Part shown: positions 12,570-56,117 of the stretch, piece by piece
Numbering within the stretch: the stretch's first letter is position 1
Layout: each line of letters begins with the position of its first letter
Assembly: GCA_030540255.1 (NCBI GenBank)
Contig: JAUNWP010000002.1
Coordinates: 1,535 to 65,534, forward strand
From: Eubacteriales bacterium
GTDB lineage: Bacteria > Bacillota > Clostridia > Lachnospirales > Lachnospiraceae
Direction of reading: 5' to 3'
DNA: 64,000 bases
Made by a program: the position numbers and the translations under genes
The notes under the pieces: generated by a model
What the model was told of the DNA's origin: nothing
The model's input: the letters and a program-made list of their open reading frames with translations, nothing else
Databases searched by the model: none

Positions 12570-13784
12570 TTATCCCCATTTTTCTTCCAGCAGAAAATCT
12601 CTGATATTTTTATGTTTGATGCCATCACGGCTCATATCAAATTCATCAAGCGAAACCACATATTTCGGAAAATTATCACGAATACTCTCATATACGCCGA
12701 ATTCGCGTTCTATGGTTTCTTCCGATGCAAGCAGATATGTTACCTGTATATATATTTTGTCTCCTTGTTTCTCACAGACAAAATCAATCTCTTTATCTCC
12801 GGCTTTCCCGACTGTGACCGTATAACCGCGGCGCAAAGCTTCCATATATACTATATTTTCAAGTATCAGATTGATATCACGCATATTACCGCCATACACG
12901 GCTTCTCTTATACCGTGATCCGCAATATAGTATTTTTCATTCGTTGAGATTATCTGCTTGCCTTTCAGATCCTGACGCTTTACCTGATAGAATAAATAAG
13001 CATCCGAGCAGTACTTTATATAATTCAGTATGGTTTCCGGCGCAACATTACGGTGTTCATTCTTCAGGAACTTTGACAATGAGGATGCTGAAAATGTTGC
13101 ACCTACATTTGCCATGATATATGCCATGATCCTTTCAAGCAGATCCACATCGCGTACATTGTTTCGTTTGATTATATCCTTAAGCTGCACCGAATTAAAA
13201 ACATCGCACAGATACTGCCTTACCGGTTCTTCGGCATATTGCAGTTTGCCAAGATACGGCATTCCTCCATATATAAGGTATTTATGGAAGCACTGCTGAA
13301 TTGAGTCCTGCGGTATCACCGATTTATACATATCGACAAATTCCGCAAATGAAAAAGGATAGATAACAAATTCCACATAACGCCCTGCAAGATAGGTAGC
13401 AAGTTCTCCCGAAAGTAATTTGGCATTCGATCCTGTAATATAAATATCACAATCAATAGAAACCCGCAGCGAGTTGACGCATTTTTCCCAATCCGTCACC
13501 TCCTGTATCTCATCAAAAAAAAGATATATTTTTCCCTGAATGGATTTTGCACGAGCTGTGATCTCATCATGAAGAGCCTTGGCATTACACAAAGCTGCAT
13601 AGTTCATATCTTCAAAATTAAAAGAGATAAAGTTATCTGTGCTTACACCGGATTCAATCAACTCCTGCTTAACCAATTCCAGCATGACCGACTTACCTGA
13701 ACGGCGTATGCCTGTCACAACCTTAATAAGCTCACTGCCGATAAAAGGTCTTATCCTGCTCATATACATTTCACGTTTGATCAT
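12570..13784 (-). CDS. AAA+ ATPase (AAA_14) with C-terminal DUF4143 / PD-(D/E)xK-like module
   Basis: 404 aa. Walker A GIRRSGKS, Walker B LFFDEIQ, and a C-terminal EIDFVCEK...IYIQVTY block resembling the restriction-endonuclease-fold motif of the COG1373 family. Confidence 0.8.
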   Translation of the reverse strand: MIKREMYMSRIRPFIGSELIKVVTGIRRSGKSVMLELVKQELIESGVSTDNFISFNFEDMNYAALCNAKALHDEITARAKSIQGKIYLFFDEIQEVTDWEKCVNSLRVSIDCDIYITGSNAKLLSGELATYLAGRYVEFVIYPFSFAEFVDMYKSVIPQDSIQQCFHKYLIYGGMPYLGKLQYAEEPVRQYLCDVFNSVQLKDIIKRNNVRDVDLLERIMAYIMANVGATFSASSLSKFLKNEHRNVAPETILNYIKYCSDAYLFYQVKRQDLKGKQIISTNEKYYIADHGIREAVYGGNMRDINLILENIVYMEALRRGYTVTVGKAGDKEIDFVCEKQGDKIYIQVTYLLASEETIEREFGVYESIRDNFPKYVVSLDEFDMSRDGIKHKNIRDFLLEEKWG

Positions 13785-14160
13785 GACACCTTACTCCCTT
13801 TTAATGCTTTCTATTTACAACATAGTATCCGGCTCAAAAGAATTCTCCGCTACGTTGTCCTCATGATATCAAGTTATATATTGTATTTCAATACAAAGTC
13901 TTAATTTTATAAGCCATAACTTATAAAATTAGTTTTTATTAAATTTTTTTATCATTAAATAACAGCATCATCAGCTACAGTTTAAAAACAGCACAATACA
14001 GCACAATTCGGACTAATCTTTTTTTCATAGGACACAATTCTATATAAAATAAAATCACCGTTTTATCACTATAACAAATAAGGTTCATTTAGGATGAAAT
14101 AAATTCCCCAAGGATCAGTATATAGAAATGAATAAGAACCGGTATAACTGAAATGAATAG

Positions 14161-14192: not shown

Positions 14193-14199
14193 ACTTAAG

Positions 14200-14271
14200 T
14201 GACCTTGCCGGGAATCGAACCCGGGCCTTCGCCGTGAGAGGGCGACGTCTTAGCCGCTTGACTACAAGGCC
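14200..14271 (-). tRNA. tRNA-Glu (anticodon CUC)
   Basis: Manual cloverleaf of 72 nt. Acceptor GGCCTTG/CAAGGTC; 3-bp D stem with an AAGCGGCTAA loop typical of tRNA-Glu; anticodon arm TCGCC-CTCTCAC-GGCGA; T arm CCGGG-TTCGATT-CCCGG. No encoded CCA. Confidence 0.9.
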
Positions 14272-14274
14272 ATA

Positions 14275-14348
14275 TCGAGGTGACAAGATTCGAACTTGCG
14301 GCCTCTGCGTCCCGAACGCAGCGCTCTACCAAACTGAGCCACACCTCG
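14275..14348 (-). tRNA. tRNA-Pro (anticodon CGG)
   Basis: Manual cloverleaf of 74 nt. Acceptor CGAGGTG/CACCTCG; D arm GCTCAGTTTGGTAGAGC; anticodon arm CTGCG-TTCGGGA-CGCAG; T loop TTCGAAT. Separated from tRNA-Glu by 3 nt. No encoded CCA. Confidence 0.9.
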
Positions 14349-14373
14349 AGTCTGTCTCTCGGACACATGTGGT

Positions 14374-25621: not shown

Positions 25622-28477
25622 TTATAAATAACTTTCGAGCGTGTTGCGGAGTCTCGAACTTTTATCTGTGTAATCACGCCTTATATCTATCTGTACGCTC
25701 TTGACATCCTCATAAAGCTCCCTTGCCGACATTCTTACGGCACCTTCTCCGAATACTATAGTCTGCTCAAGACCGTCCGAGGTAGCGACTGTAACTCTCT
25801 CTTTTTTACCTATCTCATGCACCGTCTTTTCGATATAGGCATCCGCAGTCTGAGCTTCCTTGGTATATACAACATAAATGTTGTGATATTTTTCTATGGA
25901 ACCGTGATTACCCTTCACCTTGTAAGCATCAAATACAAGTATCAGAGTCATGCCCTTAAAGCCCTGATAATTGGCAAGTATATCGATAAGCGCAGCTCTT
26001 GCCGCATCGATATTGAGAGCGGCAAGCTCGTTAAGCTCCTCCCAGGCAAAAATGATATTGTAGCCATCCACAAGCAGATATTGTTTCTTTGCCGCCTTTA
26101 TCTCAACATGCCCGTCTTCGCCCGGTGCATTAGACTTAATACTCTTTTTTACCGCATCGCCTGCTCTGTGAGTTCTCTCATATGACTTGTCGGCATTTCT
26201 GCCGCGATTTCCGCCGAGACTCCTGTAGAATATCTCTTCAAGCTCCTTATCTTCCTTTAATCCGGCTCCGAGATAATCTTGTTTTTTAGATGAGCTTTGC
26301 GATACGGCAGGCTTTCCGTTCTTACTAATGTCAGATATTTTTATATCATAGTCTGAATTATCATCATAATATGATGCATATTTGCTCAGATCATAATGTT
26401 TTATAAGTTTTATCCCATTTTCCACGACGGGAGCCTGTTCTGTCTTATCCGCGTCAAGCGCACGTCTTAAGCTCAGCTCCTCTCCCTTAAGGTCAAGATG
26501 AAAATACGAGTCAGCTTCATACCAAGGCACATAATATCCCGCTCCGTGAGTACAGAAAACAGAACCGCCCTGATTATCAAGATCAAGCTCCGGCTCATAG
26601 CCCTTATCCGCAACTATACTTTCTGTATCAATACATTTTCCGTAGCCCCCGAAACTCAAAGATAAGCGTCCGAAACCTCCTGTATATGCCGCAGTCTCCG
26701 CCGCATAGTCCGATATCTTTGATACCGCCGCCCTTCCGGTAAATCTTGCCTGTCCGTTCATAAGCTCCGGCCCCTCAAAGCTCTCGGCAATATTGGCAAG
26801 ATCATTCATAGCCCTTCCGACATTAGCATCCGGTACTGTAAGTTCAAATTCATAATACGGCTCAAGCAGCACTGCCGTGCCTGCTGCTTTTGATTTCATA
26901 AGTCCGTATCTTACCGCGCGCCATGAAGCCTCTCTGAAATCTCCGCCCTCGGTATGCTTTTCGTGTGCCTTGGCATTGATCAGACTTATCCTCACATCCG
27001 TAAGCTCAGCTCCCACCAACGCACCTATATGCTTTTTTTCTGCTATATCGGACATTATAAGTCTCTGGAAATGTCTCGGCAGCACATCCTCACTAAGCTG
27101 TGATACTATCTCTATACCGCTGCCCCTCTCCGCCGGTTCCATAAGCAGATGAACCTCCGCATAGTGTCTGAGCGGTTCGAAGTGGCCTGCACATATCACC
27201 GGAGCTGCTATGGTCTCCTTATATACTATGGAGCTTGGCGTAAAGTTGAGCGCAATATCATAGCGTTCCCTGACTATGGACTTGATGATATCTGTCTGTA
27301 TCTCACCCATAAGCTTGATACCGATCTCCCTGGTATGTTCGCTGAAGCCCACACTTATCTCCGGTATCTCGGTCTCTATCTCCTTAAGCAGACTATAGAG
27401 CTTATGAACATCGGCTATATCAGGCGAGCTTACCCCTGCCGTAAAAAGCGGTGTCATAAGCATTTCGCTTCCGGGAGGTTCATTTCCCAGAGTATCTCCC
27501 GGCATTGCAGATTCCGGTCCCTCCACGCATACAGCCATACCGGCCTCAGCCCTTTCTGCCTGCTCTGCCTTGGTTCCCGAATATACTACTATCCTATCTA
27601 TCTTTTCGTCAGTTGATGCGATCCCGTTTCTGTGATTAAGCTTAACAACATCCTTTGGCTTAAGCTCTCCCCCACATATCCTTATATGTGTAAGACGTTT
27701 TCCTCTTTGATCATGAGTGATCTTGAACACTTTGGCCGCAAATTCGTCCGGATATTCACTTGCGGGGCTTAAGAGCTCTATAAGTGCCAGTAATCTGTCC
27801 ACGCCTTCGTTTTTAAGCGCCGACCCAAAGCATACCGGATGAAGCTTTCGCAATTTGAACAAGCGTATGATCTCTGATGTATCAAGCTTAGCATGCTCAA
27901 AAAAATGCTCTGTTGCCTCATCATCAAGCACGGCAACAGACTCATAAAACTCATTTTTTTCCGTTTCATCCGGAAATGCAAAGCTTCCGTCCTTATCCAG
28001 GATGCTGAAATCCACACAGGCTTCTCCGAAATTTTTCTTTATCTCCGCAAGAACTTTTTCACTGTCAGTGCCCGGCTGATCCGTTTTATTAACAAATATA
28101 AGCGTCGGTACCTTATAGAGCTCCGTCAGCTTCCATAAGGTAAGGTCGTGACCGTGTATTCCGTCTGCCGCACTCACTATGAGCACCGCAAGATCTATAA
28201 CCGACAATACTCTCTCGGTCTCGGCCGAAAAATCCGTATGTCCCGGCGTATCTATAAGTGTGAATCTGCTATTCCCAATGTTAAAAAGAGCCTGCTTGGA
28301 GAATATGGTTATTCCCCTCTCACGCTCTTCGGTCTCTGTATCAAGAAAGCTGTCGCGGTGATCCACGCGCCCGGCTTTCCTGATACTTCCTGTATTAAAT
28401 AATATACTCTCCGACAAAGTGGTCTTGCCGGCATCTACATGCGCAAGCAATGCAAGGCAGTGATTGTTATTTATCAT
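25622..28477 (-). CDS. TetM/EF-G-family translational GTPase fused to a C-terminal Rae1/YacP-type NYN ribonuclease domain
   Basis: 951-aa single ORF. Contains G1 AHVDAGKT, G3 DTPGH and G4 NKTD, and is collinear with TetM through about aa 660 (FGSALKNEGVDRLL, AKVFKITHDQRGKRLTHIRICGG). The last 154 aa (nt 25625..26086) carry YacP/Rae1 blocks LLVDGYN, VFDA, YTKE..TAD.YIE, VATSD..EQ and GA.RMSAREL. The start lies 1 nt after the gpsA stop. Confidence 0.85.
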   Translation of the reverse strand: MINNNHCLALLAHVDAGKTTLSESILFNTGSIRKAGRVDHRDSFLDTETEERERGITIFSKQALFNIGNSRFTLIDTPGHTDFSAETERVLSVIDLAVLIVSAADGIHGHDLTLWKLTELYKVPTLIFVNKTDQPGTDSEKVLAEIKKNFGEACVDFSILDKDGSFAFPDETEKNEFYESVAVLDDEATEHFFEHAKLDTSEIIRLFKLRKLHPVCFGSALKNEGVDRLLALIELLSPASEYPDEFAAKVFKITHDQRGKRLTHIRICGGELKPKDVVKLNHRNGIASTDEKIDRIVVYSGTKAEQAERAEAGMAVCVEGPESAMPGDTLGNEPPGSEMLMTPLFTAGVSSPDIADVHKLYSLLKEIETEIPEISVGFSEHTREIGIKLMGEIQTDIIKSIVRERYDIALNFTPSSIVYKETIAAPVICAGHFEPLRHYAEVHLLMEPAERGSGIEIVSQLSEDVLPRHFQRLIMSDIAEKKHIGALVGAELTDVRISLINAKAHEKHTEGGDFREASWRAVRYGLMKSKAAGTAVLLEPYYEFELTVPDANVGRAMNDLANIAESFEGPELMNGQARFTGRAAVSKISDYAAETAAYTGGFGRLSLSFGGYGKCIDTESIVADKGYEPELDLDNQGGSVFCTHGAGYYVPWYEADSYFHLDLKGEELSLRRALDADKTEQAPVVENGIKLIKHYDLSKYASYYDDNSDYDIKISDISKNGKPAVSQSSSKKQDYLGAGLKEDKELEEIFYRSLGGNRGRNADKSYERTHRAGDAVKKSIKSNAPGEDGHVEIKAAKKQYLLVDGYNIIFAWEELNELAALNIDAARAALIDILANYQGFKGMTLILVFDAYKVKGNHGSIEKYHNIYVVYTKEAQTADAYIEKTVHEIGKKERVTVATSDGLEQTIVFGEGAVRMSARELYEDVKSVQIDIRRDYTDKSSRLRNTLESYL

Positions 28478-28478
28478 A

Positions 28479-29480
28479 TTAAACCGTTTCGTTCTTCTTA
28501 TCTCTCAGCATCAGTCTGTTTACTGTTTCTCTTGCATCCTCATTGTAGTTGACAATACAATCCACAGACTCACATATCGGAAGTTCCACCTTATATTTCG
28601 CTGCAAGCTTGAGTATAGGCTTTATTGCATTTATCCCCTCAACGACCATTCCTACTCTGTCCTTGGCTTCCTCGGCATTATATCCCTGTCCTATATAGAA
28701 GCCTGCTCTGTTATTTCTTGAATGCTCGCTTGTTGCAGTCACTATCAGATCTCCCATGCCTGCAAGTCCGGCAAATGTCTCCTGCTTACAGCCCATGGCA
28801 AGACCCAGCCTGGTCATCTCGGCAAGTCCTCTTGTTATAAGAGCCGCACGTGAATTGTCTCCGTAGCCTAAGCCTCTGCAGATACCGGAAGCAAGAGCCA
28901 TTATATTCTTCATTGCCCCGCAAAGCTCCACACCCTTCATATCGTCATTGGTGTAAACTCTCATGTATTTATTCATGAATACATCCTGAACGAATCCGGC
29001 AGCCGCACTGTCAAGTGATGCGGATACTATAGAGCATGGCAGATTCTTGACCACTTCTTCGGCATGTGTAGGTCCGCTTAAGGCAACTGTCCTTGCCTTC
29101 TTGCCTGCCTGCTTCATCTCATCCTCGATAACATCCGTAAGATTCATAAGACTTGAGAGCTCAATACCCTTTGATACGCTTACGATTATCTGATCATCCG
29201 GGATATATGAGGCAGCCTCATGCATGGTACTGCGCACATTTACCGAAGGTACCGCTACCATGATGATATCCTTTTTCCTGCACAGCTTTGCCATGTCGGC
29301 TTCATAGTTTATACTGTCCGGCAGCACACAGTCCAGCTTAGGATATCTATGTGTCTGCTTATACTCTTTCAGCTTTTCACTGTGATACGTCCACACACTT
29401 ACCTTATGTCCGTTGTCACACAGCAGCTTTGCCAGAGCCATTCCCCAGCTTCCTGCTCCCAATATTCCGATACTGCTCAT
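28479..29480 (-). CDS. gpsA: NAD(P)H-dependent glycerol-3-phosphate dehydrogenase
   Basis: ORF 28479..29552. Preferred start is the Met at 29480, giving MSSIGILGAGSWGMALA (Rossmann motif). That start lies 2 nt after the upstream gene's stop. Confidence 0.9.
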   Translation of the reverse strand: MSSIGILGAGSWGMALAKLLCDNGHKVSVWTYHSEKLKEYKQTHRYPKLDCVLPDSINYEADMAKLCRKKDIIMVAVPSVNVRSTMHEAASYIPDDQIIVSVSKGIELSSLMNLTDVIEDEMKQAGKKARTVALSGPTHAEEVVKNLPCSIVSASLDSAAAGFVQDVFMNKYMRVYTNDDMKGVELCGAMKNIMALASGICRGLGYGDNSRAALITRGLAEMTRLGLAMGCKQETFAGLAGMGDLIVTATSEHSRNNRAGFYIGQGYNAEEAKDRVGMVVEGINAIKPILKLAAKYKVELPICESVDCIVNYNEDARETVNRLMLRDKKNETV

Positions 29481-29482
29481 TA

Positions 29483-30199
29483 TTATTTCCCTGCTTTTCT
29501 GTCGAACAGCATCCACCCCAGATGTACAAGGAAGGCTGCCGCTATGACACATAATATATACAATACTATTACTGCATTGTTCGGAATGATCTTAGTCAGA
29601 TCATTAAATACTATTTGATTAAGATAATAATGCGGATTGATATAAAACATATCCACCACGCCGTATTTATCAAAGCTTAAGTTTATAATCTCGGCTGTGA
29701 CGCAGCCTGTAAGGAAGATAAATGTCTCGGGTACAAAATCCCTGAGGCTTCTACCCCTAATATCATGCTTTTTTGCATTAGTCTTTGCTCTCGGATCTTC
29801 CTCCGAAGCCTTATGCAAAAGGTCTTGTTTTTCACTGCCGTGACCGAAAGAAATATTTTTATCCGTATTTCTTTCGCTGTAATGCAGTAAAATCCCGGAA
29901 AAGATCCCTATACAGGCTATTGTCACATGCCACAGATACGAATGTATAGTAAGCGGTGCATAGCCGTAATGGAGGCCTGTCGTATCAAGGAAGGTCACCA
30001 GCCCAGACATCAGACTGTAATCTGCCAAAAAGCCTATCATAGTCTCTCGTATCCGTGTTTTCCTTAACACATAGATAAGTATACACAGATACATAGGCAT
30101 TGAACACAGCTGGAATGGGATATAGCTCCATTGATACGCGCCCTTATTCAATACATAAGTAAGTGTATACTGCTTCCACAACTCGCTTATTATAAGCAC
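29483..30199 (-). CDS. polytopic membrane protein, tentatively YwaF/TMEM164-like; N-terminus appears short
   Basis: 238 aa with a GTG start in the track. Several hydrophobic helices, an IPFQLCSMPMY motif reminiscent of the conserved LCS motif of the YwaF family, and a long hydrophilic insert (HYSERNTDKN...RSLRDF). Family assignment is from memory only. Confidence 0.5.
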   Translation of the reverse strand: MLIISELWKQYTLTYVLNKGAYQWSYIPFQLCSMPMYLCILIYVLRKTRIRETMIGFLADYSLMSGLVTFLDTTGLHYGYAPLTIHSYLWHVTIACIGIFSGILLHYSERNTDKNISFGHGSEKQDLLHKASEEDPRAKTNAKKHDIRGRSLRDFVPETFIFLTGCVTAEIINLSFDKYGVVDMFYINPHYYLNQIVFNDLTKIIPNNAVIVLYILCVIAAAFLVHLGWMLFDRKAGK

Positions 30200-33571: not shown

Positions 33572-34708
33572 TTACTTTGCTGCCTTGATTGCCTTGATTG
33601 AATCAATAAGCATCGGAACTACCTTGAAGAGGTCTCCTACGATACCGTAGTCAGCGATCTCGAACATCGGAGCCGATGGGTTAGTGTTAACAGCGATAAT
33701 GCACTCTGAATCCTGCATACCTGCCTTATGCTGAATAGCACCTGAAATACCAAGAGCGATATATACCTTAGGATGTACAGTCTTACCTGTCTGTCCAACC
33801 TGGTGATCAGCTGAAAGCCAACCTGAGTCGATAGCTACACGAGAACCACCGAGAACTCCGCCGAGCTCGTCAGCAAGCTGCTGTCCGAGTGCAACACCGC
33901 CCTCAACGTCCTTAGCGATACCACGACCTACAGATACGATGTAATCAGCACCGATAAGGTCAACAAGCTTCTTAGCTGCCTTCTCAACTGCAAGTACTTC
34001 TGTCTCGAAATCAGCCTCTGTGAGTGAGAACTCAGGTCTGATGATCTCTGCAGCGTCTGCCTTAGCCTGATCGAACGGAGCCTTTCTCATAACGCCCGGA
34101 CGAACTGTTGCCATTGCAGGACGGAAACGTGGGCAGATGATTGTAGCCATAAGGTGTCCGCCGAATGCAGGACGAGTCATCTTAAGGTCATGTGAAACAT
34201 CATGCTTCTCACCCATAACCATAGCTGAGCTTGTTCCCTCAATTCTCTCAGGAGCAAGTGTTGAAGCCTCCTTGAGGAAGTCCTGATATACAGGAACACT
34301 TACATCGAGGTGTGTGCAGTCTGCGCAAAGACCTGTGTGAAGTCTGGCTGCACAACGAGGACCTAAGTCACGTCCGATATATGTAGCACCGAAGAGAACA
34401 ACCTCAGGCTTTCTCTCCTTGATTACATCAACGATAACCTTGGTGTAACCGTCTGTTGTATAGTTCTTGAGAAGCGGGCTCTCGCAAAGCACAACGCCGT
34501 CAGCGCCGTATCCAGCGATCTCCTTGCACTTATCAGAAACATTGTCTCCAAGAAGAAGGGCATAAAGCTTGCAACCAAGCTCGTCTGCAAGTCTGCGTCC
34601 CTCTGAGATCAACTCAAAGCTTGTCGGCTGAACAACGCCCTGACGCTGCTCACAGAAAACCCATACATCCTTGAAAGCAGAAATATCCGCACTATTGTAA
34701 TTGTCCAT
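33572..34708 (-). CDS. etfA: electron transfer flavoprotein alpha subunit
   Basis: 378 aa. The C-terminal FAD-binding blocks (VSVGRG, GSR..IDSGW, QVGQTGK.V.P.VYIA.GISGAIQH) are typical of EtfA. A central segment appears longer than in the EtfA proteins I recall. Confidence 0.9.
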   Translation of the reverse strand: MDNYNSADISAFKDVWVFCEQRQGVVQPTSFELISEGRRLADELGCKLYALLLGDNVSDKCKEIAGYGADGVVLCESPLLKNYTTDGYTKVIVDVIKERKPEVVLFGATYIGRDLGPRCAARLHTGLCADCTHLDVSVPVYQDFLKEASTLAPERIEGTSSAMVMGEKHDVSHDLKMTRPAFGGHLMATIICPRFRPAMATVRPGVMRKAPFDQAKADAAEIIRPEFSLTEADFETEVLAVEKAAKKLVDLIGADYIVSVGRGIAKDVEGGVALGQQLADELGGVLGGSRVAIDSGWLSADHQVGQTGKTVHPKVYIALGISGAIQHKAGMQDSECIIAVNTNPSAPMFEIADYGIVGDLFKVVPMLIDSIKAIKAAK

Positions 34709-34726
34709 TATTCAATCTCCTTTCAA

Positions 34727-35527
34727 TCAGATGACATGCTTTTTCTCAAGAATTCCGGCGAGCTCGTCAGCAGTCTTCTTGTCAGCACCCTCAAGAATAA
34801 CACCAGCACCCTTGAGCGGCGGTGTGAATGATACAAGAATGTTTGTCGGAGATCCCTGAAGACCGATCGTGTTAGGATCGATAAGCGGCTCATCCTTAAG
34901 TGTGTTGTAATCATATACATCAACCGGCTTCTCATATGCTGTGAAGATTCCGAATGTGCTCATGTAACGAGGCTCGTTGAGCTCCTTGATGCAAGTGATA
35001 AGGCAAGGTGTCTTCATCTTGATGTTCATGAAGCCATCCTCGAGCATACGCTTAACGATAACGCTGTTGCCCTCAACCTTGATGTCTCCTGCATATGTGA
35101 TCTGAGGAAGGTTAAGCTTCTCTGCGATCTGCGGTCCAACCTGAGCTGTATCTCCGTCGATAGCCTGACGTCCGCACATAACGATGTCATCGTCATTAAG
35201 TCCCATGTGATGGATACCTGCAGCGATGATCTGTGATGTAGCGAATGTATCTGATCCACCGAACTCACGTGCTGAGATAAGAACTCCGCGGTCAGCTCCC
35301 ATAGCAAGGATCTCACGAAGCATCTTCTCTGCCGGCGGCGGTCCCATTGTTACTACTACAACTTCACAGCCTGTCTCGTCCTTAAGCTTAAGAGCTGCCT
35401 CTACTGCATTAAGGTCATCCGGGTTGATGATTGTAAGCATGGAAGCACGGTCAAGAGTTCCGTCCGGCTTAACTGCAACCTTTCCTGATGTATCAGGTAC
35501 CTGTTTTACGCAAACGATAACTTTCAT
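34727..35527 (-). CDS. etfB: electron transfer flavoprotein beta subunit
   Basis: 266 aa. Starts MKVIVCVKQVPDT and continues with EtfB-family blocks. Confidence 0.9.
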   Translation of the reverse strand: MKVIVCVKQVPDTSGKVAVKPDGTLDRASMLTIINPDDLNAVEAALKLKDETGCEVVVVTMGPPPAEKMLREILAMGADRGVLISAREFGGSDTFATSQIIAAGIHHMGLNDDDIVMCGRQAIDGDTAQVGPQIAEKLNLPQITYAGDIKVEGNSVIVKRMLEDGFMNIKMKTPCLITCIKELNEPRYMSTFGIFTAYEKPVDVYDYNTLKDEPLIDPNTIGLQGSPTNILVSFTPPLKGAGVILEGADKKTADELAGILEKKHVI

Positions 35528-35543
35528 CTATCTATATCCTCCA

Positions 35544-36698
35544 TTACTTCTTCTTAAGATTCATGCCACCTGAGATAACGATCTTCATAACCTCAGATGT
35601 ACCCTCGTAGATCTCTGTGATCTTAGCATCACGCATCATACGCTCAACAGGGTACTCACGGCAATATCCGTATCCACCGAAGAGCTGTACAGCCTCACGA
35701 GTAACCTCATTTGCAACGTCAGAAGCAAAGAGCTTAGCCATAGCTGCAAGTGATGAGAACGGCTCATGTGCATCCTCAGCTGCTGCTGCTCTCCAAGTCA
35801 TAAGACGAGCTGCATCAACCTTTGTCTGCATCTCAGCAAGCTTGAACTGTGTGTTCTGAAATGCTGCGATCGGTCTGCCAAACTGCTCACGAACCTTACA
35901 ATACTCAATAGCCTCGTTGATAGCACCCTGTGCAAGACCAACTGACTGAGCTGCGATACCGATACGTCCGCAGTCAAGAGCCTGCATGGCGATCTTGAAT
36001 CCCTTACCGATCTGTCCGAGAACTCTGTCCTTAGAAACGCGAACGTCATCATAAGTAACGATACAGTTCTGTGCAGCGCGGATACCCATACGCTTGATGT
36101 TCTCCTGAACATCAACACCTGGGGTGTTCTTAAGATCAACGATGAATGCTGTAAGTCCCTTAGAAACCGGAACAGTCTTATCTGTAATTGCGAATACTAT
36201 GCAAGTATCAGCAAATGCTGAGTTTGTTGTAAAGATCTTAGAACCGTTGATGATCCAATCATCACCATCCTGAACAGCAACAGTCTGAGCTCCCTGAACG
36301 TCTGAACCTGCGTTAGGCTCTGTAAGACCGAAGCATCCGAACTGTGATCCGTCAACAAGCGGACGAAGGAATCTCTGCTTCTGCTCCTCTGTACCTGCCA
36401 TGTTGATGCATGAGCAGCAAAGTGAAGTATGAACTGAGATTGTTATACCACAGGAACCGTCCTGCTTAGAAACCTCTTCCATGCAGAGAGCATATGTAAT
36501 TGTGTCTCCGCCGGCTCCGCCGTACTCCTTTGAGTATGGGATACCGAAGAAGCCGTATCTCTGCATCTTGCCGAGAAGCTCCATGTTAATCTCTTCGGTC
36601 TCATCCATTTCGTGAGCCAGAGGCTTGATTTCATTTTCAGCAAATTTGCGGAACAACTCCTGTGCAAGCTGCTGCTCTTTGGTAAGTTTAAAATCCAT
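35544..36698 (-). CDS. acyl-CoA dehydrogenase (butyryl-CoA dehydrogenase-like)
   Basis: ORF 35544..36710. Preferred start is the ATG at 36698 (MDFKLTKEQQ), with a GGAGG RBS 6 nt upstream. Contains the ACAD blocks GLTEPNAGSD and QLFGGYGY and a C-terminal EIYEGTSE. Confidence 0.9.
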   Translation of the reverse strand: MDFKLTKEQQLAQELFRKFAENEIKPLAHEMDETEEINMELLGKMQRYGFFGIPYSKEYGGAGGDTITYALCMEEVSKQDGSCGITISVHTSLCCSCINMAGTEEQKQRFLRPLVDGSQFGCFGLTEPNAGSDVQGAQTVAVQDGDDWIINGSKIFTTNSAFADTCIVFAITDKTVPVSKGLTAFIVDLKNTPGVDVQENIKRMGIRAAQNCIVTYDDVRVSKDRVLGQIGKGFKIAMQALDCGRIGIAAQSVGLAQGAINEAIEYCKVREQFGRPIAAFQNTQFKLAEMQTKVDAARLMTWRAAAAEDAHEPFSSLAAMAKLFASDVANEVTREAVQLFGGYGYCREYPVERMMRDAKITEIYEGTSEVMKIVISGGMNLKKK

Positions 36699-36770
36699 AA
36701 ATACCTCCAAAATTAATGCTTTTTTGACAAAAAAAATTCATCAAAAAAAATCACATTGTTTTCTATTCGT

Positions 36771-36799
36771 ATAATAGTCATGAACACAACTTTTGTCAA
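36771..36799 (-). promoter_or_regulatory. candidate sigma-A promoter of bcd-etfBA
   Basis: Minus strand reads TTGACA, a 17-nt spacer, then TATTAT, about 70 nt upstream of the bcd start. Confidence 0.55.
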
Positions 36800-36969
36800 T
36801 TGTTTTGCATGCAAAATAAATTGTAAAAAGCACGAATTTGTATCGTAAAAACTGTTGTATTTTGCCAATATATTAATGTTTTGAATACCGCTTATTCAGC
36901 AAAAGTTTATATTCCTTCAGATTAATAATATAAATCAGACATAAAGGCAATAATAGTTTATATTTTCAC

Positions 36970-36998
36970 TTGACATAAACGCATTATGGTGCTATAAA
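36970..36998 (+). promoter_or_regulatory. candidate promoter of the OCD-family gene
   Basis: TTGACA, a 17-nt spacer, then TATAAA preceded by TGc (extended -10). Confidence 0.55.
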
Positions 36999-37096
36999 AA
37001 TACAAAACGTGACAAAGGGGTCGCAGATGTTTATTCATCGTGCGGCTTTTTTTGCGTATATATGGTTTTTAAGTTATTATTTTAGAGGTCAAATCA

Positions 37097-38227
37097 ATGG
37101 GAAAGCATACTGATTTTCTGTACCTGTCAGAGCCGGAAGTTATAGAAGCCGGTGTATATGACGCTAAGTTTTGTGTCGACAATGCCGAAGAGGTTTTCAA
37201 GCTTATTGCCAAGGGTGACTATGTCATGGGTGGTCCTAACCACAACAGCCACGGCATATATGTAACCTTCCCTAAGGAGCCTGAGTTCGAGAACATGCCT
37301 AAGGATGGTCCGGATCGTCGTTTTGTTGCTATGCCGGCTTATCTCGGCGGTCGATTTGACATGGCAGGCTGCAAGTGGTATGGTTCTAATGCCGGTAATA
37401 AGGATCACGGTCTTCCGAGAAGTATCCTTATGACTATGCTTAACGATAAGGAGACCGGTGAGCCTATATGTCATCTCAGCGGTAACCTTATTTCGGCAGC
37501 ACGTACAGGTGCCGTTCCAGGTGTAGGTGTTCGTCATCTTGCCCGCAAGGATTCCGAAGTACTTACACTTATAGGCTGTGGTGCTATCGGTAAGTCTTCT
37601 CTCCAGAACATCATCGGAGAGATGCCTAATATCAAGAAGGTTATATGCCATAACCATTCAGAGGCTCGTGCAATCGCACTTGCAGAGTACTGCACCAAGA
37701 CCTACGGTGTAGAGGCTGTAGTCGAGAACGATCTTGAGACAGCAACACGTCAGGCAGATGTTCTTAATGTCGCTGCTTCACGTACAGTACCGCTTATCTT
37801 TAAGCATGAGTGGATCAAGCCGGGATGCACTATCCTTGCTTCGGGTCCTCTTAACGGAGACGAGGAGTTCTGGATGCAGATGAAGGTCATCTGGGATAAC
37901 CACAAGCTTCACGAGGCTTATGTTGAGGACGCTATCATCTCCGGTGATAAGGAAGCATTCTATAAGACAGTAATCGGTGGTCCTGTATTCCACCTTATCG
38001 ATGAAGGCAAGAAGCCTGCACTCGACGCTCCGGAAACAGTTAATATCGGTGATGTAATAAACGGTACAAAGGTAGGCCGTGAGAGTGATGATCAGATCAT
38101 CTGCTTTATCGCGAGCGGTCAGGTCATATTCGATATTGCACTCGCACATGACCTCTATCAGAATGCGCTTAAGAAGGGACTCGGAACAAAGCTCCTTCTC
38201 TGGGACAGCCCGGCTCAGGCAGACTGA
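37097..38227 (+). CDS. ornithine cyclodeaminase / mu-crystallin family protein
   Basis: 376 aa. The segment ISAARTGAVPGVGVRHLARKDSEVLTLIGCGAIGKS matches the family's ARTAA... block followed by the GxGxxG Rossmann motif. Substrate unknown. Confidence 0.72.
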   Translation: MGKHTDFLYLSEPEVIEAGVYDAKFCVDNAEEVFKLIAKGDYVMGGPNHNSHGIYVTFPKEPEFENMPKDGPDRRFVAMPAYLGGRFDMAGCKWYGSNAGNKDHGLPRSILMTMLNDKETGEPICHLSGNLISAARTGAVPGVGVRHLARKDSEVLTLIGCGAIGKSSLQNIIGEMPNIKKVICHNHSEARAIALAEYCTKTYGVEAVVENDLETATRQADVLNVAASRTVPLIFKHEWIKPGCTILASGPLNGDEEFWMQMKVIWDNHKLHEAYVEDAIISGDKEAFYKTVIGGPVFHLIDEGKKPALDAPETVNIGDVINGTKVGRESDDQIICFIASGQVIFDIALAHDLYQNALKKGLGTKLLLWDSPAQAD

Positions 38228-38331
38228 TAAGTATTCGGGTATTAATTACGGTAAACTGCGGTAACCCCCGCATCAATCATAGTTTACAACTCCTAAATCT
38301 ATTTTTCGTTTTTGCAAATGCAAAAACAGCA

Positions 38332-38368
38332 ACGGCACTGCACTCTCCAAGCAGTGCCGTTTGCATTT
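38332..38368 (+). terminator. intrinsic terminator of the OCD-family gene
   Basis: 10-bp stem ACGGCACTGC/GCAGTGCCGT with a 9-nt loop, followed by TTGCATTT. Confidence 0.6.
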
Positions 38369-38390
38369 ACATCAAAAAATGATGAAAGAC

Positions 38391-38438
38391 AAAAAGAAGC
38401 ACTTATGTAAGCTTGCTTACAGATCAGTGCTTCTTTTT
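38391..38438. terminator. bidirectional terminator-like hairpin between convergent genes
   Basis: AAAAAGAAGCACT...AGTGCTTCTTTTT: a 10-bp outer stem and a 7-bp inner stem, flanked by an A-run and a T-run. Confidence 0.55.
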
Positions 38439-38536
38439 GGATTGTAGCCGGCATTCTATGAATGCCGGTGCACGGCAATCCGCTTGCGGATATGTCGTGC
38501 ATCATTTTTGATGTATTAATGCTTTTAGCAAAACGA

Positions 38537-39400
38537 TCAGATGTTTGAGTACTTCTCTTCTCTCCACTGCTTAGCCTTCTTGAGGCTTCCGAGCTCCTTG
38601 AGCTTATCATTGAACTCGTTAACCTCTTCGTCCTCCCAGCACATGCCGAGGCAAAGAGTATCAAGCCACTGCTCGCGCATTGTAGCAAAGCCCATTGCAT
38701 CAACGCAACGGTTGATAGCCTTCTTCTGAAGTGCCATTGCATTTCTCGGAACCTTTGCAAGATCCTTTGCAAATGCCTTAACAGCCTCATCAAGCTCCTG
38801 ATGCTTAAGCTCAGGCTGAGTCTTGGCATCATACTTGTTCTCCGGATCACATACTACGCACTGATTTGCAATACCGATCTCAACAGCCGTCTTGCCGTCA
38901 TAGAACTTACCTGTAAGAAGGTACTCACGGCACTTTCTGAGATTGATCATGTAAGGCATAGCAAGGAAGGTTGCGCCCTGACCGAACTGGATCTCATTAA
39001 CTCCCATTGAAGCATCATCTGATACAATACAGAAGTCGCAGGCAAGTGCGATATCATGAGCTCCGCCGTAGCAATAGCTGTGAACCTGAGCGATGGTTGG
39101 CTTTGTCATCTCCCAGATCTTCTTACGTGTACGATTGCCGTATGCTTCATAAGCACGACGCTGTGTCTCATTGGTCTCCTTGCCTACAGTAGTGCTGAGA
39201 TCAAAGCCTGCCGAGAAGCATCTGCCTGCACCCTTGATAACTACGACCTTGATGTCGTCCTCTGCCTCGAAGTAATCGCAAGCATCAGCAAGTGCAGCAT
39301 AAGTTGCACGGTTGATACCGTTCATCTTGTCAGGTCTGTTGATGATGATATAACCGATATATCCCTTTTTCTCACATAATACAAGCTGTTCCTCTGCCAT
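38537..39400 (-). CDS. enoyl-CoA hydratase/isomerase (crotonase) family protein
   Basis: 287 aa. INRPDKMNGIN...VVVIKGAGRCFSAGFDL is the crotonase-fold oxyanion-hole region. Has a C-terminal charged extension. Confidence 0.85.
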   Translation of the reverse strand: MAEEQLVLCEKKGYIGYIIINRPDKMNGINRATYAALADACDYFEAEDDIKVVVIKGAGRCFSAGFDLSTTVGKETNETQRRAYEAYGNRTRKKIWEMTKPTIAQVHSYCYGGAHDIALACDFCIVSDDASMGVNEIQFGQGATFLAMPYMINLRKCREYLLTGKFYDGKTAVEIGIANQCVVCDPENKYDAKTQPELKHQELDEAVKAFAKDLAKVPRNAMALQKKAINRCVDAMGFATMREQWLDTLCLGMCWEDEEVNEFNDKLKELGSLKKAKQWREEKYSNI

Positions 39401-41592: not shown

Positions 41593-43710
41593 TTACTTGC
41601 CCTTCTTCTCGTTCAGGATCTTCTCCTGTACGTTCTTCGGTACAGCCTGATAGTGATCAAAGAACATGGAGTAGTTACCACGTCCCTGAGTTCCGGAACG
41701 AAGCTCTGTAGAATAGCCGAACATCTCAGCAAGCGGAACTGTAGCCTTGATGATCTTTCCGCCTCCTACATCGTCCATCTCCATAACCTGACCTCTACGT
41801 CTGTTGAAGTCACCGTTAACGAATCCTGTGTACTCCTCAGGAACAGTAACCTCTACCTTCATGATAGGCTCAAGAAGTGTAGGTGCACCCTTAGCCATAG
41901 CCTCCTTAAGTGCAAGTGAACCTGCAATATGGAATGCCATCTCCGAAGAGTCGACCTCGTGGTAACTTCCGTCCCAAACATTTGCAGAAATACCGATAAC
42001 CGGGAATCCGCCAAGCGGGCCTGCCTTCATTGCTTCCTGAATACCCTCGTTAACAGGCTCGATGTACTCCTTCGGAATAGCACCGCCGACAACGGTATTC
42101 TCGAACTTATAAAGCTCTTCGCCGTTTGCATCCATAGGAGCAAACTTAACCTTACAATGTCCGTACTGACCCTTACCACCCGACTGCTTAACGTACTTGG
42201 AATCTACGTCTGCAGGCTTGGTAATTGTCTCCTTATATGCAACCTGAGGTGCACCGACATTAGCCTCAACGTTAAACTCACGAAGAAGTCTGTCAACAAT
42301 GATCTCAAGGTGAAGCTCACCCATACCTGAGATGATAGTCTGGCCTGTCTCGGTATCTGTCTTTGTTCTGAATGTAGGATCCTCTTCTGCAAGCTTTGCA
42401 AGAGCCTCGCCCATCTTACCCTGTGAAGCCTTGGTCTTAGGCTCGATAGCAACATCGATAACCGGCTCCGGGAATTCCATTGACTCAAGGATAACAGGAT
42501 GCTGCTCGTCACAGATAGTATCACCTGTACCTGTAAACTTGAAGCCTACTGCTGCAGCGATATCACCCGAATAGCACTTATCAAGCTCATGACGCTTGTT
42601 GGCATGCATCTGAAGGATACGTCCTACACGCTCCTTCTTGTTCTTTGTAGCGTTAAGTACATAAGAACCTGAGTTTACAGTACCTGAGTAAACTCTGAAG
42701 TAAGCAAGCTTTCCTACGAAAGGATCTGTCATGATCTTGAATGCAAGAGCTGCAAACGGCTCTTCATCAGATGAATGACGAACGACCTCATTACCGTCAA
42801 GATCAACTCCGTCGATAGGCGGAACATCAAGCGGTGAAGGCATAAAGTCAATGATAGCATCAAGAAGCTTCTGGATACCCTTGTTTCTGTATGCAGAACC
42901 ACAGCAAACAGGAATTGCTGTACACTCACAGCATCCCTTTCTGAGCGCTGCTTTGAGCTGCTCCTCTGTCGGAACCTCTCCGTCAAGGAACATCATGGTA
43001 AGCTCGTCATCAAGCTCACAGATCTTCTCTACAAGCTCATCACGATACATCTCAGCATCGTCCTTCATATCCTCAGGGATATCTATGATAGAAACGTCAT
43101 CACCCTTATCATCATTGTAGATATATGCCTTCATCTCGAAAAGGTCGATGATTCCCTTGAAAGAATCCTCCTTGCCGATAGGAAGCTGAGTGATGATAGT
43201 ATTCTTACCGAGTCTGTCATGGATCTGCTGAACAGCACCGTAGAAGTTAGCACCAAGTATATCCATCTTATTGATGAAAGCCATACGTGGTACATTGTAG
43301 GTATCAGCCTGTCTCCATACGTTCTCTGACTGAGGCTCAACTCCGCCCTTGGCACAGAATACGCCTACAGCTCCGTCAAGTACTCTGAGTGAACGCTCAA
43401 CCTCTACTGTGAAGTCAACGTGACCAGGAGTATCGATAATGTTGATACGGTTCTCCGGCTCATTCGGATCCGGTTTGTTGTTCTTGTGCTTTGTCCAGTG
43501 GCAGGTCGTAGCAGCTGATGTGATAGTGATACCACGCTCCTGCTCCTGAGCCATCCAGTCCATGGTAGCAGTTCCTTCGTGGGTATCACCGATTTTGTAG
43601 TTAACACCTGTGTAATAAAGGATACGCTCTGTCAATGTAGTCTTACCTGCATCGATATGAGCCATGATTCCGATATTACGTGTTCTTTCTAACGGATATT
43701 CTCTTCCCAT
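41593..43710 (-). CDS. fusA: elongation factor G
   Basis: 705 aa. [15 protein letters not shown] and DTPGHVDF with all five EF-G domains. Conserved rpsL-rpsG-fusA-tuf order. Confidence 0.97.
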
Positions 43711-52444: not shown

Positions 52445-52666
52445 AGATATTCTCCACCTCATTAATAATTTATACAACTACGTTCTGTAAGCTATTGCAA
52501 ATGTTATGCAATAGTAGTAAAATACTTAAGCATTAAGGCGCACAACGCCATAATAATGCAAATTTTAGGTTAACACATCTGTTGTCAATCGTCAAGTATC
52601 TGCTTGAGTTTTTTTTCATAAGATGTTAAGATATTTTCTAATATACCAGTTAAGGAGTTCTTTTAC

Positions 52667-53125
52667 ATGTACACACTTATAACAGTACTTATTATTGTGC
52701 TTATTATTGCGGCAATCGCATTATTCTTCCTCTATCGTGCCGGAATGAAGATGCAGACAGAACAGGCTCAGAATCAGGTCATGCTTGATAAGTTCGCACA
52801 GGTTGCCACACTCCTCGTTATCGACAAGAAGAAAATGAAGTTCAAAGAGGCACCGTTCCCAAAGGAGGTTTTTGAGACAGCTCCTAGACGTGCCAAGTTC
52901 ATGAAAGTATATGTCGTAAGAGCCAAGGTAGGTCCTAAGGTATTCGACCTTATGTGCGACAGAGATACCTTTGAGGACGTTCCGCTTAAGGCTACAATCA
53001 AAGCAAGAGTAAGCGGCATGTATCTCATGGAGATCCTGCAGGGTGCCGTACCGAGTGAGCGCAACATCAAGAAGCGTAAGAAGGCAAAGGAAAAAGCCGA
53101 GAAGAAGGCAGCAAAGAACAGCTGA
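52667..53125 (+). CDS. hypothetical single-pass membrane protein with a lysine-rich C-terminal tail
   Basis: 152 aa. N-terminal TM helix LITVLIIVLIIAAIALFFLY and C-terminal KKRKKAKEKAEKKAAKN. AAGGAG RBS. A strong terminator follows. Confidence 0.55.
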   Translation: MYTLITVLIIVLIIAAIALFFLYRAGMKMQTEQAQNQVMLDKFAQVATLLVIDKKKMKFKEAPFPKEVFETAPRRAKFMKVYVVRAKVGPKVFDLMCDRDTFEDVPLKATIKARVSGMYLMEILQGAVPSERNIKKRKKAKEKAEKKAAKNS

Positions 53126-53142
53126 TATTTCGACATAGTTTA

Positions 53143-53171
53143 AGACCATCGCAAACGCGATGGTCTTTTTT
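53143..53171 (+). terminator. intrinsic terminator (possibly shared with convergent ddl)
   Basis: Perfect 10-bp stem AGACCATCGC-AAAC-GCGATGGTCT followed by TTTTTT. It abuts the ddl stop codon. Confidence 0.75.
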
Positions 53172-53172
53172 G

Positions 53173-54237
53173 TTAATGTATGCCTCTTTCGAGCGCATTA
53201 TCTATAAGCATCTTAACAAGCTCTTTCTTGGAGATACCTTTGTTCTCCCAGAGCATAGGATACATGGATATAGCAGTGAATCCCGGCATGGTGTTGATCT
53301 CGTTGAATACGATCTCACCGTCGTCCTTGACAAAGAAATCAACTCTGGCAAGTCCGTAGCCGTCAAGTGCATTGAAGATGTTTCTCGCATCATCTCTGAT
53401 GCCCTCGACAGTCTCTTCCTTAAGATCCGGATCTATAACCGTCTTGGAATCAGGATTGTTGTACTTGGCATCATAATCATAGAAATCAGCAGCCGCAAGT
53501 ATCTCTCCGACTCCGCTCGCCTGAACCTTCTTGAAGCCTCCTCCAAATACGCCACACTCTATCTCTCTGCCCTTGATAAATTCCTCTATAAGTATCTTGC
53601 TGTCATACTCGGCAGCCTTCTTAAGCGCATCCTTAAGCTCCGAAGCATCCTTTACCTTTGATACTCCGCATGAAGATCCTGCCTGACTCGGCTTAACAAA
53701 CATAGGATATCCGAGAGCCGCCTCCGCGCGTCTTACAACAGCCTCAATGTCCTTAAGCTCATAGCTTCTGACACCGACAAACTTAGCCTGTCTTACGCCT
53801 ATCGTATCTACTATTATCTTGGTATAGAATTTATCCATGCCTGCCGCAGATGCTATAACACCGCAGCCGACATAAGGAAGCTGCATAAGCTCAAACAGTC
53901 CCTGTATGGTTCCGTCTTCGCCGTACTTGCCATGCAATACAGGGAAAGCACAATCCAGTCTGATTTCTCTTGTTCCCTTATCATCGCTTACGATAACATG
54001 CTTCTTGGTAGCATCCGGGCTTATCTCGGCGCTTGTCTTTGATTCGGTCCAGCTTCCGTTCTTTATTGACTCGATACTGTCAACAAGAAGCCACTTACCC
54101 TCCTTTGTAATGCCTATGAGCACAGGATTCCACTCATCGGTATCGATATTGTCCAAAACGTTGCAAACTGAGATACAGGAAATGTCATGCTCCGATGACT
54201 GTCCTCCGAAGATTACGGCTATATTTTTCTTATTCAT
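53173..54237 (-). CDS. ddl: D-alanine--D-alanine ligase
   Basis: ORF 53173..54258 (TTG start in the track). Preferred start is the ATG at 54237 (MNKKNIAVIFGGQSSEHDIS). ATP-grasp blocks and a C-terminal NEINTMPGFT. Confidence 0.9.
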   Translation of the reverse strand: MNKKNIAVIFGGQSSEHDISCISVCNVLDNIDTDEWNPVLIGITKEGKWLLVDSIESIKNGSWTESKTSAEISPDATKKHVIVSDDKGTREIRLDCAFPVLHGKYGEDGTIQGLFELMQLPYVGCGVIASAAGMDKFYTKIIVDTIGVRQAKFVGVRSYELKDIEAVVRRAEAALGYPMFVKPSQAGSSCGVSKVKDASELKDALKKAAEYDSKILIEEFIKGREIECGVFGGGFKKVQASGVGEILAAADFYDYDAKYNNPDSKTVIDPDLKEETVEGIRDDARNIFNALDGYGLARVDFFVKDDGEIVFNEINTMPGFTAISMYPMLWENKGISKKELVKMLIDNALERGIH

Positions 54238-54295
54238 TGTAATGCCCTTCATTATCAATTTTTTCGTGTATAAGATACCATACTTTATTTAAATT

Positions 54296-55947: not shown

Positions 55948-56062
55948 ACTCTTATCGATTAAATACGGATTGCTTCGTACTGCGTACTCTCGCAATCCTA
56001 CGAAAATTCGCACCCGCTTCTACCGAAGCTTTGTGCTCATTTTCGTTTTGCCGTCCTATAGT

Positions 56063-56113
56063 CGTCTTTGCGTCAGCAAGCTGCCGCTTCTACGACTGCA
56101 GTCCGGCTTTAAT
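56063..56113. repeat. 51-bp direct repeat, copy 2
   Basis: CGTCTTTGCGTCAGCAAGCTGCCGCTTCTACGACTGCAGTCCGGCTTTAAT. Each copy contains the hairpin GCG-x-CAGC-AA-GCTG-x-CGC. Confidence 0.9.
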
Positions 56114-56117
56114 CGAT

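Follow-up and report, generated by a model that had tools for sequence, protein, structure and literature searches.

Eukaryotes possess translational GTPases that link ribosome stalling to decay, as in the Ski7/Hbs1- or GTPBP1-linked decay of mRNA. Collision-dependent endonucleases are cited elsewhere as well, namely SmrB in E. coli and Cue2 in yeast (PMC13622287, PMC12407103). The NYN endoribonuclease Rae1 (YacP) of Bacillus subtilis performs a translation-dependent mRNA cleavage upstream of stalled ribosomes (PMC12407103), and a 2026 preprint describes that the truncated mRNAs it makes enable rescue of collided ribosomes by transfer-messenger RNA (tmRNA) (PMC13622287). Fusions between a TetM-like GTPase and a NYN_YacP domain have been reported in Clostridia (Atkinson 2015, PMC4342817; Matelska et al. 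2017, PMC5499597), and the first of these reports assigned them to the Tet subfamily. The present work deals with one such fusion, encoded on the minus strand at 25622..28477 of a stretch of 64,000 nucleotides (hereafter the window) from the Lachnospiraceae member Eubacteriales bacterium (assembly GCA_030540255.1, contig JAUNWP010000002.1, positions 1,535-65,534, forward strand). By analogy with Rae1, the protein may be a GTPase-anchored form of this nuclease devoted to the rescue of stalled or collided ribosomes, a proposal to which we give an even chance. What is new relative to the known systems is that Rae1 has here been made part of a translational GTPase, in a variant of a noted but uncharacterised family.

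The likeness with SmrB and Cue2, and with Ski7/Hbs1 and GTPBP1, would lie in the recruitment of a nuclease or decay machine to stalled or collided ribosomes for rescue. SmrB and Cue2 differ by their SMR fold, where the fusion has an NYN domain. In all these systems recruitment proceeds through the disome interface or separate adaptors, whereas the fusion holds the translational GTPase and the nuclease in one polypeptide; no characterised protein of this kind was found in the full-text literature.

The open reading frame (ORF) extends from an ATG start codon to a stop codon at 25622-25624 and codes for 951 amino acids (aa); the ORF list confirmed it as a single uninterrupted frame, as stated in the initial annotation. 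According to Pfam, the product has five GTPase domains of the EF-G superfamily and, at its C-terminus, an NYN_YacP domain. The G domain (residues 8-235, 27773..28456, this and all other features of the gene being on the minus strand; GTP_EFTU PF00009, E = 5.6e-47) displays the G1 motif AHVDAGKT at residues 12-19, the switch I RGITI at 54-58, the G3 motif DTPGH at 76-80, the G4 motif NKTD at 130-133 and the G5 motif SAL within GSALK at 218-222. Domain II (residues 246-330, 27488..27742) matches EF-G_D2 PF22042 and PF03144, and its beta-barrel strands are present in the AlphaFold2 (AF2) model. Domain III (residues 342-412, 27242..27454; EFG_III PF14492, E = 5.6e-06) scores marginally below its gathering score, with 26.8 against 27 bits, and is also backed by a confident AF2 fold and by Foldseek matches to full-length EF-G. 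Domain IV (residues 417-529, 26891..27229; EFG_IV PF03764, E = 5.1e-16) carries two family-specific tip loops, GHFEPLRHYAEVH at residues 431-443 (27149-27187) and HEKHTEGGDFR at residues 505-515 (26933-26965). Domain V (residues 536-615, 26633..26872; EFG_C PF00679, E = 1.1e-10), also present in the AF2 model, is followed by a folded family-specific C-terminal extension (residues 616-681, 26435..26632), a disordered and variable tether (residues 682-795, 26093..26434) and the Rae1/YacP-type NYN endoribonuclease domain (residues 801-951, 25625..26077; NYN_YacP PF05991, E = 5.3e-52). The latter scores 176.6 bits for a gathering score of 24.6, which places it within the family, and contains LLVDGYN at 801-807, VFDA at 848-851, TAD at 877-879 and ATSD at 898-901. 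A motif scan of the protein located all previously quoted motifs at their expected places.

The AF2 model has a mean predicted local distance difference test score (pLDDT) of 80, with confident domains I-V, extension (pLDDT of about 82-94) and NYN domain, and a disordered 682-795 segment (pLDDT below 50). When this model is submitted to Foldseek, the top matches are EF-G structures on or off the ribosome (E = 7e-51 over about 690 columns). On sequence grounds the protein is a translational GTPase of the EF-G/EF2 superfamily, as G1-G5, the catalytic His of DxxGH and the five domains are all found in it, and the ribosome is its plausible site of action.

The reality and the extent of this architecture were assessed at several scales. 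When 5.8 billion protein clusters were searched by word index, 120 homologs (873-1021 aa) were listed, all of them combining PF05991 with the GTPase domains. Among the GTDB species representatives (one genome per species), a query made of the extension, the tether and the NYN domain recovered at least 590 relatives, nearly all of them in Lachnospiraceae, the best 80 of which cover the whole query; the genera concerned include Blautia, Dorea, Coprococcus, Anaerobutyricum, Fusicatenibacter, Herbinix, Eisenbergiella, Marvinbryantia and Robinsoniella. When 1.84 billion cluster representatives were searched exhaustively with a profile, 900 proteins were obtained at E <= 1e-30, nearly all of them from Lachnospiraceae or Monoglobus; the full-length ones measure 850-1000 aa and match at their C-terminus, the short entries having the appearance of fragments. 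Outside Lachnospirales, an 862-aa copy of the fusion was found in Monoglobus pectinilyticus (Monoglobales). The initial annotation had considered that a stop codon or frameshift might separate two genes; neither was seen in the related loci, as one stop-free frame of 848-1031 aa holds both modules in 83/83 independent genome loci, which rules out a frameshift or assembly artefact and puts the architecture far beyond chance. The fusion gene is thus real and widespread, and is a chromosomal, vertically inherited, single-copy and core-like housekeeping gene of Lachnospiraceae that is also present in Monoglobus.

A few database entries called for separate inspection. Two candidates for a standalone close homolog were discarded: P0239 (177 aa) comes from a contig of 737 bp and represents only a fragment of a gene, and in P0223 (181 aa) tether-like residues precede LLVDGYN, so that it looks like a fragment too. 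A fusion of the Lachnospiraceae type is found on CAZRKN010000011.1, binned as 'uncultured Bacteroides sp.', and in P0356, labelled Bacteroides sp.; the likeliest explanation is mis-binning rather than presence in Bacteroidota. Plasmid carriage was rejected, the two high-coverage 'plasmid' records being non-mobilizable pieces of chromosome with core genes. Phage carriage was rejected as well: the 'Bacteriophage sp.' virome contig MT835563 displays bacterial housekeeping neighbours and is bacterial DNA. The 'plasmid' collection holds other pieces of chromosome, such as a whole Monoglobus assembly entered as 'plasmid 2-20' and C. difficile 'plasmids' of about 100 kb with ribosomal-protein operons.

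The identity of the GTPase module required a comparison with both the Tet proteins and EF-G. NCBI names relatives of the fusion as members of the TetM/TetW/TetO/TetS family, and a tetracycline ribosomal-protection protein equipped with an auxiliary RNase is what this annotation implies and what Atkinson 2015 suggested (PMC4342817). In agreement with such a function, the best NCBIfam model is tet_protect and the best matches to PDB sequences are TetO (230 bits) and TetM (225 bits), slightly ahead of EF-G (208 bits). The alignment is almost free of gaps, residues 6-614 of TetO facing 8-616 of the query, and the collinearity with TetM-type proteins claimed at the outset is therefore correct. Tet(M) and Tet(O) (3J9Y, 4V6V) share the five-domain EF-G-like architecture with about 30% identity, and the G' region of the fusion is, like theirs, shorter than in EF-G. 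The scores on the curated models nevertheless lie far below the cutoffs: the fusion obtains 386 bits on tet_protect (NF012153) for a cutoff of 775, and 262 bits on the TetM/W/O/S model (NF033148) for a cutoff of 1100. The EF-G resident in the same window, used as a control, already scores 342 bits on tet_protect, and the Tet signal is therefore barely above the background of the EF-G superfamily. By fold, EF-G ranks first and TetM fiftieth in the Foldseek results.

A further difference resides in loop III of domain IV, described as the functionally most important element of Tet(M) (PMC4750697). There, the TetO/TetM sequence GLYYSPVSTPADFR aligns with AKAHEKHTEGGDFRE in the fusion: GLYYSPVS is replaced by AKAHEKHTEGG, of which AHxKHTEGG is invariant across the family, and the Y506-Y507-S508-P509 region of TetM, by which tetracycline is displaced, is absent. 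Besides this substitution of YSPV by H-x-K-H-T-E-G-G, the fusion differs from Tet(M) and Tet(O) by a longer conserved C-terminal extension, by the nuclease and by the lack of mobile elements. The mobile and patchy distribution, of the horizontal gene transfer type, that is expected of Tet proteins was not observed, the non-mobilizable fusion gene being near-universal in one bacterial family and located in core chromosomal contexts. Taken together, these results make a role in tetracycline protection quite unlikely. The label 'TetM-type' stands as a description of the architecture and fails as a family assignment, and the annotation of the fusion as a TetM-family tetracycline-resistance protein is probably wrong.

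Compared with EF-G, the fusion shows the same overall fold (Foldseek E of about 1e-50), the G1-G5 motifs with the catalytic His, and a His at the position of the domain IV tip His. The two proteins are otherwise distant. The fusion is only 24% identical to the resident EF-G and lacks both loop I (SGGKGQ) and the G' insertions. On the EF-G model TIGR00484 it obtains 246.6 bits for a cutoff of 659.4, and the genuine fusA of the window (41593..43710), located in an rpsL-rpsG-fusA-tuf array, reaches 1100 bits. Because of this low identity, of the losses in loop I and G' and of the score below cutoff, the fusion is predicted to be an EF-G paralog and not a translocase. As the Tet tests failed and these differences from EF-G were found, its GTPase module appears from sequence comparison to be a branch of its own within the EF-G/Tet clade.

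For the C-terminal module, the domain announced in the initial annotation was recovered both by Pfam and by alignment with the crystallised B. subtilis Rae1/YacP (5MQ8/5MQ9), whose residues 3-138 are 44% identical to it (E = 1.9e-28). In this alignment the Rae1 aspartates D7, D53, D81 and D104 correspond to D804, D850, D879 and D901 of the fusion. Conservation was examined in 121 database sequences and, separately, in a set of 84 composed of the query and 83 species representatives whose identity to it is just 42-51%. The four aspartates are invariant in 121/121 and 84/84 sequences respectively, so that the four acidic active-site positions predicted earlier are all aligned and none is lost across the family; N807, T877, E883, E904 and Q905 are likewise invariant in both sets. 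With the same PF05991 fold family and the four catalytic Asp in common, the fused NYN domain presumably has the chemistry and the ribosome-linked mRNA substrate of Rae1. Its setting is different, since Rae1, with its approximately 170 aa, exists free and associates only transiently with the ribosome, whereas the fused domain is the C-terminus of a 951-aa GTPase, placed behind about 115 disordered residues and encoded in another gene context. The fusion accordingly departs from the usual description of the Rae1 family as single-domain proteins of about 170 aa encoded in a cysS-mrnC-rlmB-yacP-sigH neighbourhood. A tail of the form YLFD..L.EE....MEEVRLGKK follows the NYN domain in 22/83 relatives. 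As it aligns without gap with the C-terminal tail of C. difficile YacP, these 22 proteins are considered on sequence grounds to contain a complete Rae1. The alignment with the PDB sequence of B. subtilis Rae1 stops at residue 138.

The two sequence sets also permit a view of what is maintained along the whole protein. In the G domain, K18, T57, D76, G79, H80, N130, K131 and D133 are invariant in both, a group which comprises the P-loop Lys, the switch I Thr, DxxGH with the catalytic His, and NKxD. Among the GTPase domains of the fusion, conservation is highest in domain IV, with a mean pairwise identity of 0.77, compared to 0.70 for NYN, 0.61 for the G domain and 0.17 for the tether. At its tip, H432, E434, P435, L436, H438, Y439, H505, K507, H508, T509, G511, G512, D513, F514 and R515 are invariant and form the segments G-H-[FY]-E-P-L-[RK]-H-Y and H-x-K-H-T-x-G-G-D-F-R, in loops that differ from those of TetO/TetM and of the resident EF-G. 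Since the GTPase motifs, the NYN aspartates and the domain IV tip are all invariant, both enzymatic activities and a family-specific surface predicted to probe the A site appear to be under maintenance.

The tether behaves differently, as its length is retained and its sequence is not. The spacing between W652 and L801 ranges from 82 to 150 residues in the 121 database sequences, with a median of 103, and is never shorter than 82. Despite the sequence identity of 0.17, a flexible tether thus appears from these comparisons to be maintained across the family. Within it, a short motif KELEEIF (residues 744-750, 26228..26248) is conserved, with E745 and I749 invariant or nearly so and L746 conserved, and coincides with a weak helix at residues 740-754 of the AF2 model. 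By simple arithmetic, 114 disordered residues represent a contour length of about 400 Å, a length that would suffice for access to the entry channel, the exit channel or a neighbouring ribosome.

The extension that precedes the tether is modelled by AF2 as a beta-hairpin (639-650) and helices. When it is modelled alone the pLDDT drops to 72.5, and this lower confidence compared with the full-length model suggests that the extension packs on domain V. Invariant residues are C642, W652 and, at the end of domain V, C615, with H644 and H660 close to invariant; C615, C642, H644 and H660 (26498..26635) could form a metal site of the C2H2 type. Neither the extension nor the tether has a Pfam match or a match among PDB sequences, and the extension has no fold match. 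A profile search with the extension returned only fragments of 52-147 aa and missed the known full-length fusions too. Many short 'hypothetical proteins', some of them on Mb-scale contigs, consist only of the end of domain V and the extension, as does P0278 from Blautia wexlerae (116 aa, 154 member sequences). Frameshifts in metagenome-assembled genomes from long reads have probably split the gene calls in these cases, and pseudogenisation may be involved in some strains.

The position of the nuclease relative to the ribosome is the point at which the possible mechanisms diverge. [quoted passage not shown] Both modules are indeed intact and ribosome-related, and an earlier docking-based proposal, as cited in PMC12407103, did place Rae1 in the A site. 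This proposal has since been withdrawn by its own authors (PMC12407103) and A-site cleavage can no longer be taken as established. In solved complexes, moreover, domain IV of EF-G/TetM-type factors fills the A site, which would leave no room for an NYN domain of about 17 kDa, and a conserved tether of at least 82 residues would be unnecessary to reach a site adjoining domain IV. Same-ribosome delivery into the A site is therefore sterically implausible, as judged from established structures, and we give this mechanism little credence.

If the fusion is instead a Rae1 anchored by its GTPase for the rescue of stalled or collided ribosomes, its operation can be briefly summarized as follows. The GTPase module in its GTP state would bind a stalled or collided ribosome at its factor-binding site, where the conserved tip of domain IV would probe the A site and the decoding centre. 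Because domain IV would fill the A site, the tethered nuclease would have to act outside of it, and its likely target would be the mRNA at the ribosome boundary, on the entry-channel side, where free Rae1 cuts. The resulting truncated mRNA would be rescued by tmRNA/SmpB, and the duration of the factor's residence and its subsequent release would be set by GTP hydrolysis. In a speculative geometry, the module would bind the trailing ribosome of a disome, whose factor site would adjoin the mRNA entry channel, and the -12 position relative to the A site in the leading ribosome would correspond to the 3' edge of the trailing one. A more elaborate version can be put forward only tentatively and is, in our opinion, possible rather than probable. 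The fusion, as the sole Rae1 of Lachnospiraceae, would be a GTP-timed sensor of stalled or collided ribosomes whose invariant tip reads the state of the A site, for instance on the rotated trailing ribosome of a disome, and only a prolonged unproductive stay would let Rae1 cut the mRNA between the ribosomes and hand the complex over to tmRNA.

Part of this version depends on whether the fusion stands in for free Rae1. In C. difficile, the standalone gene is found in the context gltX-cysS-mrnC-thyX-rlmB-yacP-sigH-tuf-rpmG-secE-nusG-rplK. In the fusion-bearing Agathobacter rectalis, no yacP is found upstream of rpmG, unrelated genes being present there, and rpmG-secE-nusG-rplK...rpoBC-str is intact. 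The rlmB gene of Monoglobus has no adjacent yacP and is followed by genes for a metallophosphoesterase and pgeF. In at least 2.06 Mb of this assembly, the part of it that was covered, the fusion is the only NYN match, and this search did recover the standalone YacP of Clostridioides, Bacillus, Listeria and Staphylococcus. In the window, TBLASTN finds only the fused copy of Rae1, the cysS-mrnC-rlmB-sigH region lying outside of the window. The A. rectalis and Monoglobus data are suggestive of a replacement of standalone Rae1, and the fusion may be the only Rae1 homolog in these lineages.

The context of standalone yacP also bears on another possible function, in which the fusion would be a factor for ribosome biogenesis, quality control or inactivation, the GTPase testing a subunit or the 70S particle and the NYN domain processing or cleaving rRNA or tRNA. 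The neighbours of standalone yacP include two genes for the maturation of rRNA, mrnC (Mini-III) and rlmB (PMC5499597), a role in rRNA/tRNA maturation was the original prediction for NYN domains as cited in PMC4342817, and the tether would allow access to rRNA ends. The experiments performed on Rae1, however, show translation-dependent mRNA cleavage and coupling to tmRNA rather than rRNA processing (PMC12407103, PMC13622287), and the fused domain shares 44% identity and the active site with Rae1. Furthermore, no rRNA-maturation gene adjoins the fusion in the 83 loci. When 86 fusion loci were searched for the yacP neighbours, no significant match to cysS, mrnC or sigH was obtained, and weak matches to rlmB or thyX paralogs appeared in three only. 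We consider a biogenesis or quality-control factor acting on rRNA or tRNA to be rather unlikely.

A nuclease targeted to ribosomes could also shut translation down, and the fusion might accordingly be an effector of the toxin-like, stress-shutdown or anti-phage kind which, once triggered, would degrade the mRNA on ribosomes. An action of Rae1 against phage mRNA is put forward as a speculation by Tetreault et al. (PMC13622287), and a BrnT/CopG toxin-antitoxin pair adjoins one locus, that of A. rectalis. Against such a role, the fusion protein has no match at E <= 0.001 among the PADLOC-DB defence models, no conserved immunity or antitoxin partner accompanies it in the 83 loci, and the gene occurs as a single, core-like copy throughout a bacterial family, with a housekeeping context between gpsA and pyrH-frr in the window. 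An effector of this type appears highly improbable.

Several points weigh against a GTPase-anchored Rae1 acting in ribosome rescue. No conserved neighbour ties the fusion to ssrA/smpB or other rescue genes in the 83 loci. The window protein ends early (...RLRNTLESYL; residues 926-951, 25625..25700) and is devoid of the distal half of the Rae1 tail, a loss shared with its closest clade. Since the entry channel, the exit channel and a neighbouring ribosome could all lie within range of the tether, geometry does not discriminate between these targets, and the substrate could be rRNA or tRNA instead of mRNA. The evidence for replacement rests on the A. rectalis slot and on part of one Monoglobus assembly. 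For Rae1 itself there is no ribosome-bound structure, its association being transient, and the way in which the free protein recognizes the ribosome is an open question (PMC13622287). Lastly, no experimental study of any member of the fusion family was found in the full-text literature; the initial annotation, which knew of no experimental description, was right as to the characterisation and not as to the architecture, already noted in 2015 and 2017.

Should the more elaborate version be correct, this would be the first bacterial rescue pathway with a translational GTPase and an mRNA endonuclease in one polypeptide. If the simpler proposal holds, a GTPase-coupled nuclease would join the means of ribosome rescue known in bacteria, and would do so in a family that is among the most abundant in the human gut. 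A natural Rae1-GTPase fusion could also be locked on ribosomes with a non-hydrolysable GTP analogue, which would offer a structural and biochemical handle on recognition by Rae1. If the Tet label is wrong, surveys of the gut resistome may be including a core gene of Lachnospiraceae among the resistance genes.

In the window, the fusion gene is part of a series of core housekeeping genes on the minus strand in the order gpsA, fusion, pyrH, frr, uppS, cdsA, dxr, rseP, ispG and polC. At the junction (28475..28481, minus strand) with gpsA, a gene identified by Pfam, the gpsA stop codon TAA is separated by a single nucleotide from the ATG of the fusion, and no terminator-like site is present between the two genes or before pyrH. 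Judging from this arrangement, gpsA and the fusion are probably co-transcribed and possibly translationally coupled. Rfam revealed no regulatory RNA near the fusion gene. A hydrophobic ORF of 238 aa without Pfam match (29483..30199, minus strand) overlaps the 5' end of the longest gpsA ORF (28479..29552, minus strand); the true gpsA start is probably an internal Met (MSSIGILGAGSWG…), in which case the overlap disappears. The adjacency to gpsA and pyrH-frr is lineage-specific and was rejected as evidence of a conserved operon partner: pyrH-frr is found elsewhere only in locus L002, 6.5 kb downstream of the fusion, and no neighbour occurs in more than 12 of the 83 loci, the commonest being a Spo0A-like regulator (12/83) and GreA (10/83).

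Other features of the window were recorded in passing. An AAA_14/DUF4143 ATPase of 404 aa (12570..13784, minus strand) matches the PADLOC candidate defence family PDC-S01 with 544 bits. It lies in the segment of lowest GC content of the window (0.388, 12001-14000), beside tRNA-Glu and tRNA-Pro (14199..14349), and this region may be a small genomic island. A full-length Clostridiales-1 small RNA (RF01699) is located at 55956..56115 on the minus strand, between an L-serine ammonia-lyase gene and tgt, with 96.6 bits for a gathering score of 48. The EF-Tu and S7 proteins of the window are 82% identical to their Agathobacter rectalis counterparts. Upstream of rpoB, ddl is found instead of rplJ-rplL (52480..54260), whereas A. 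rectalis keeps rpmG-secE-nusG-rplK-rplA-rplJ-rplL-rpoB-rpoC-rpsL-rpsG-fusA-tuf intact; the ribosomal/RNA-polymerase super-operon is therefore rearranged in the genome of the window. Genes for an acyl-CoA dehydrogenase, EtfB, EtfA and an enoyl-CoA hydratase are grouped at 33572..39400 and resemble a set for butyryl-CoA (bcd-etf-crotonase), as would suit a Lachnospiraceae-like organism that produces butyrate.

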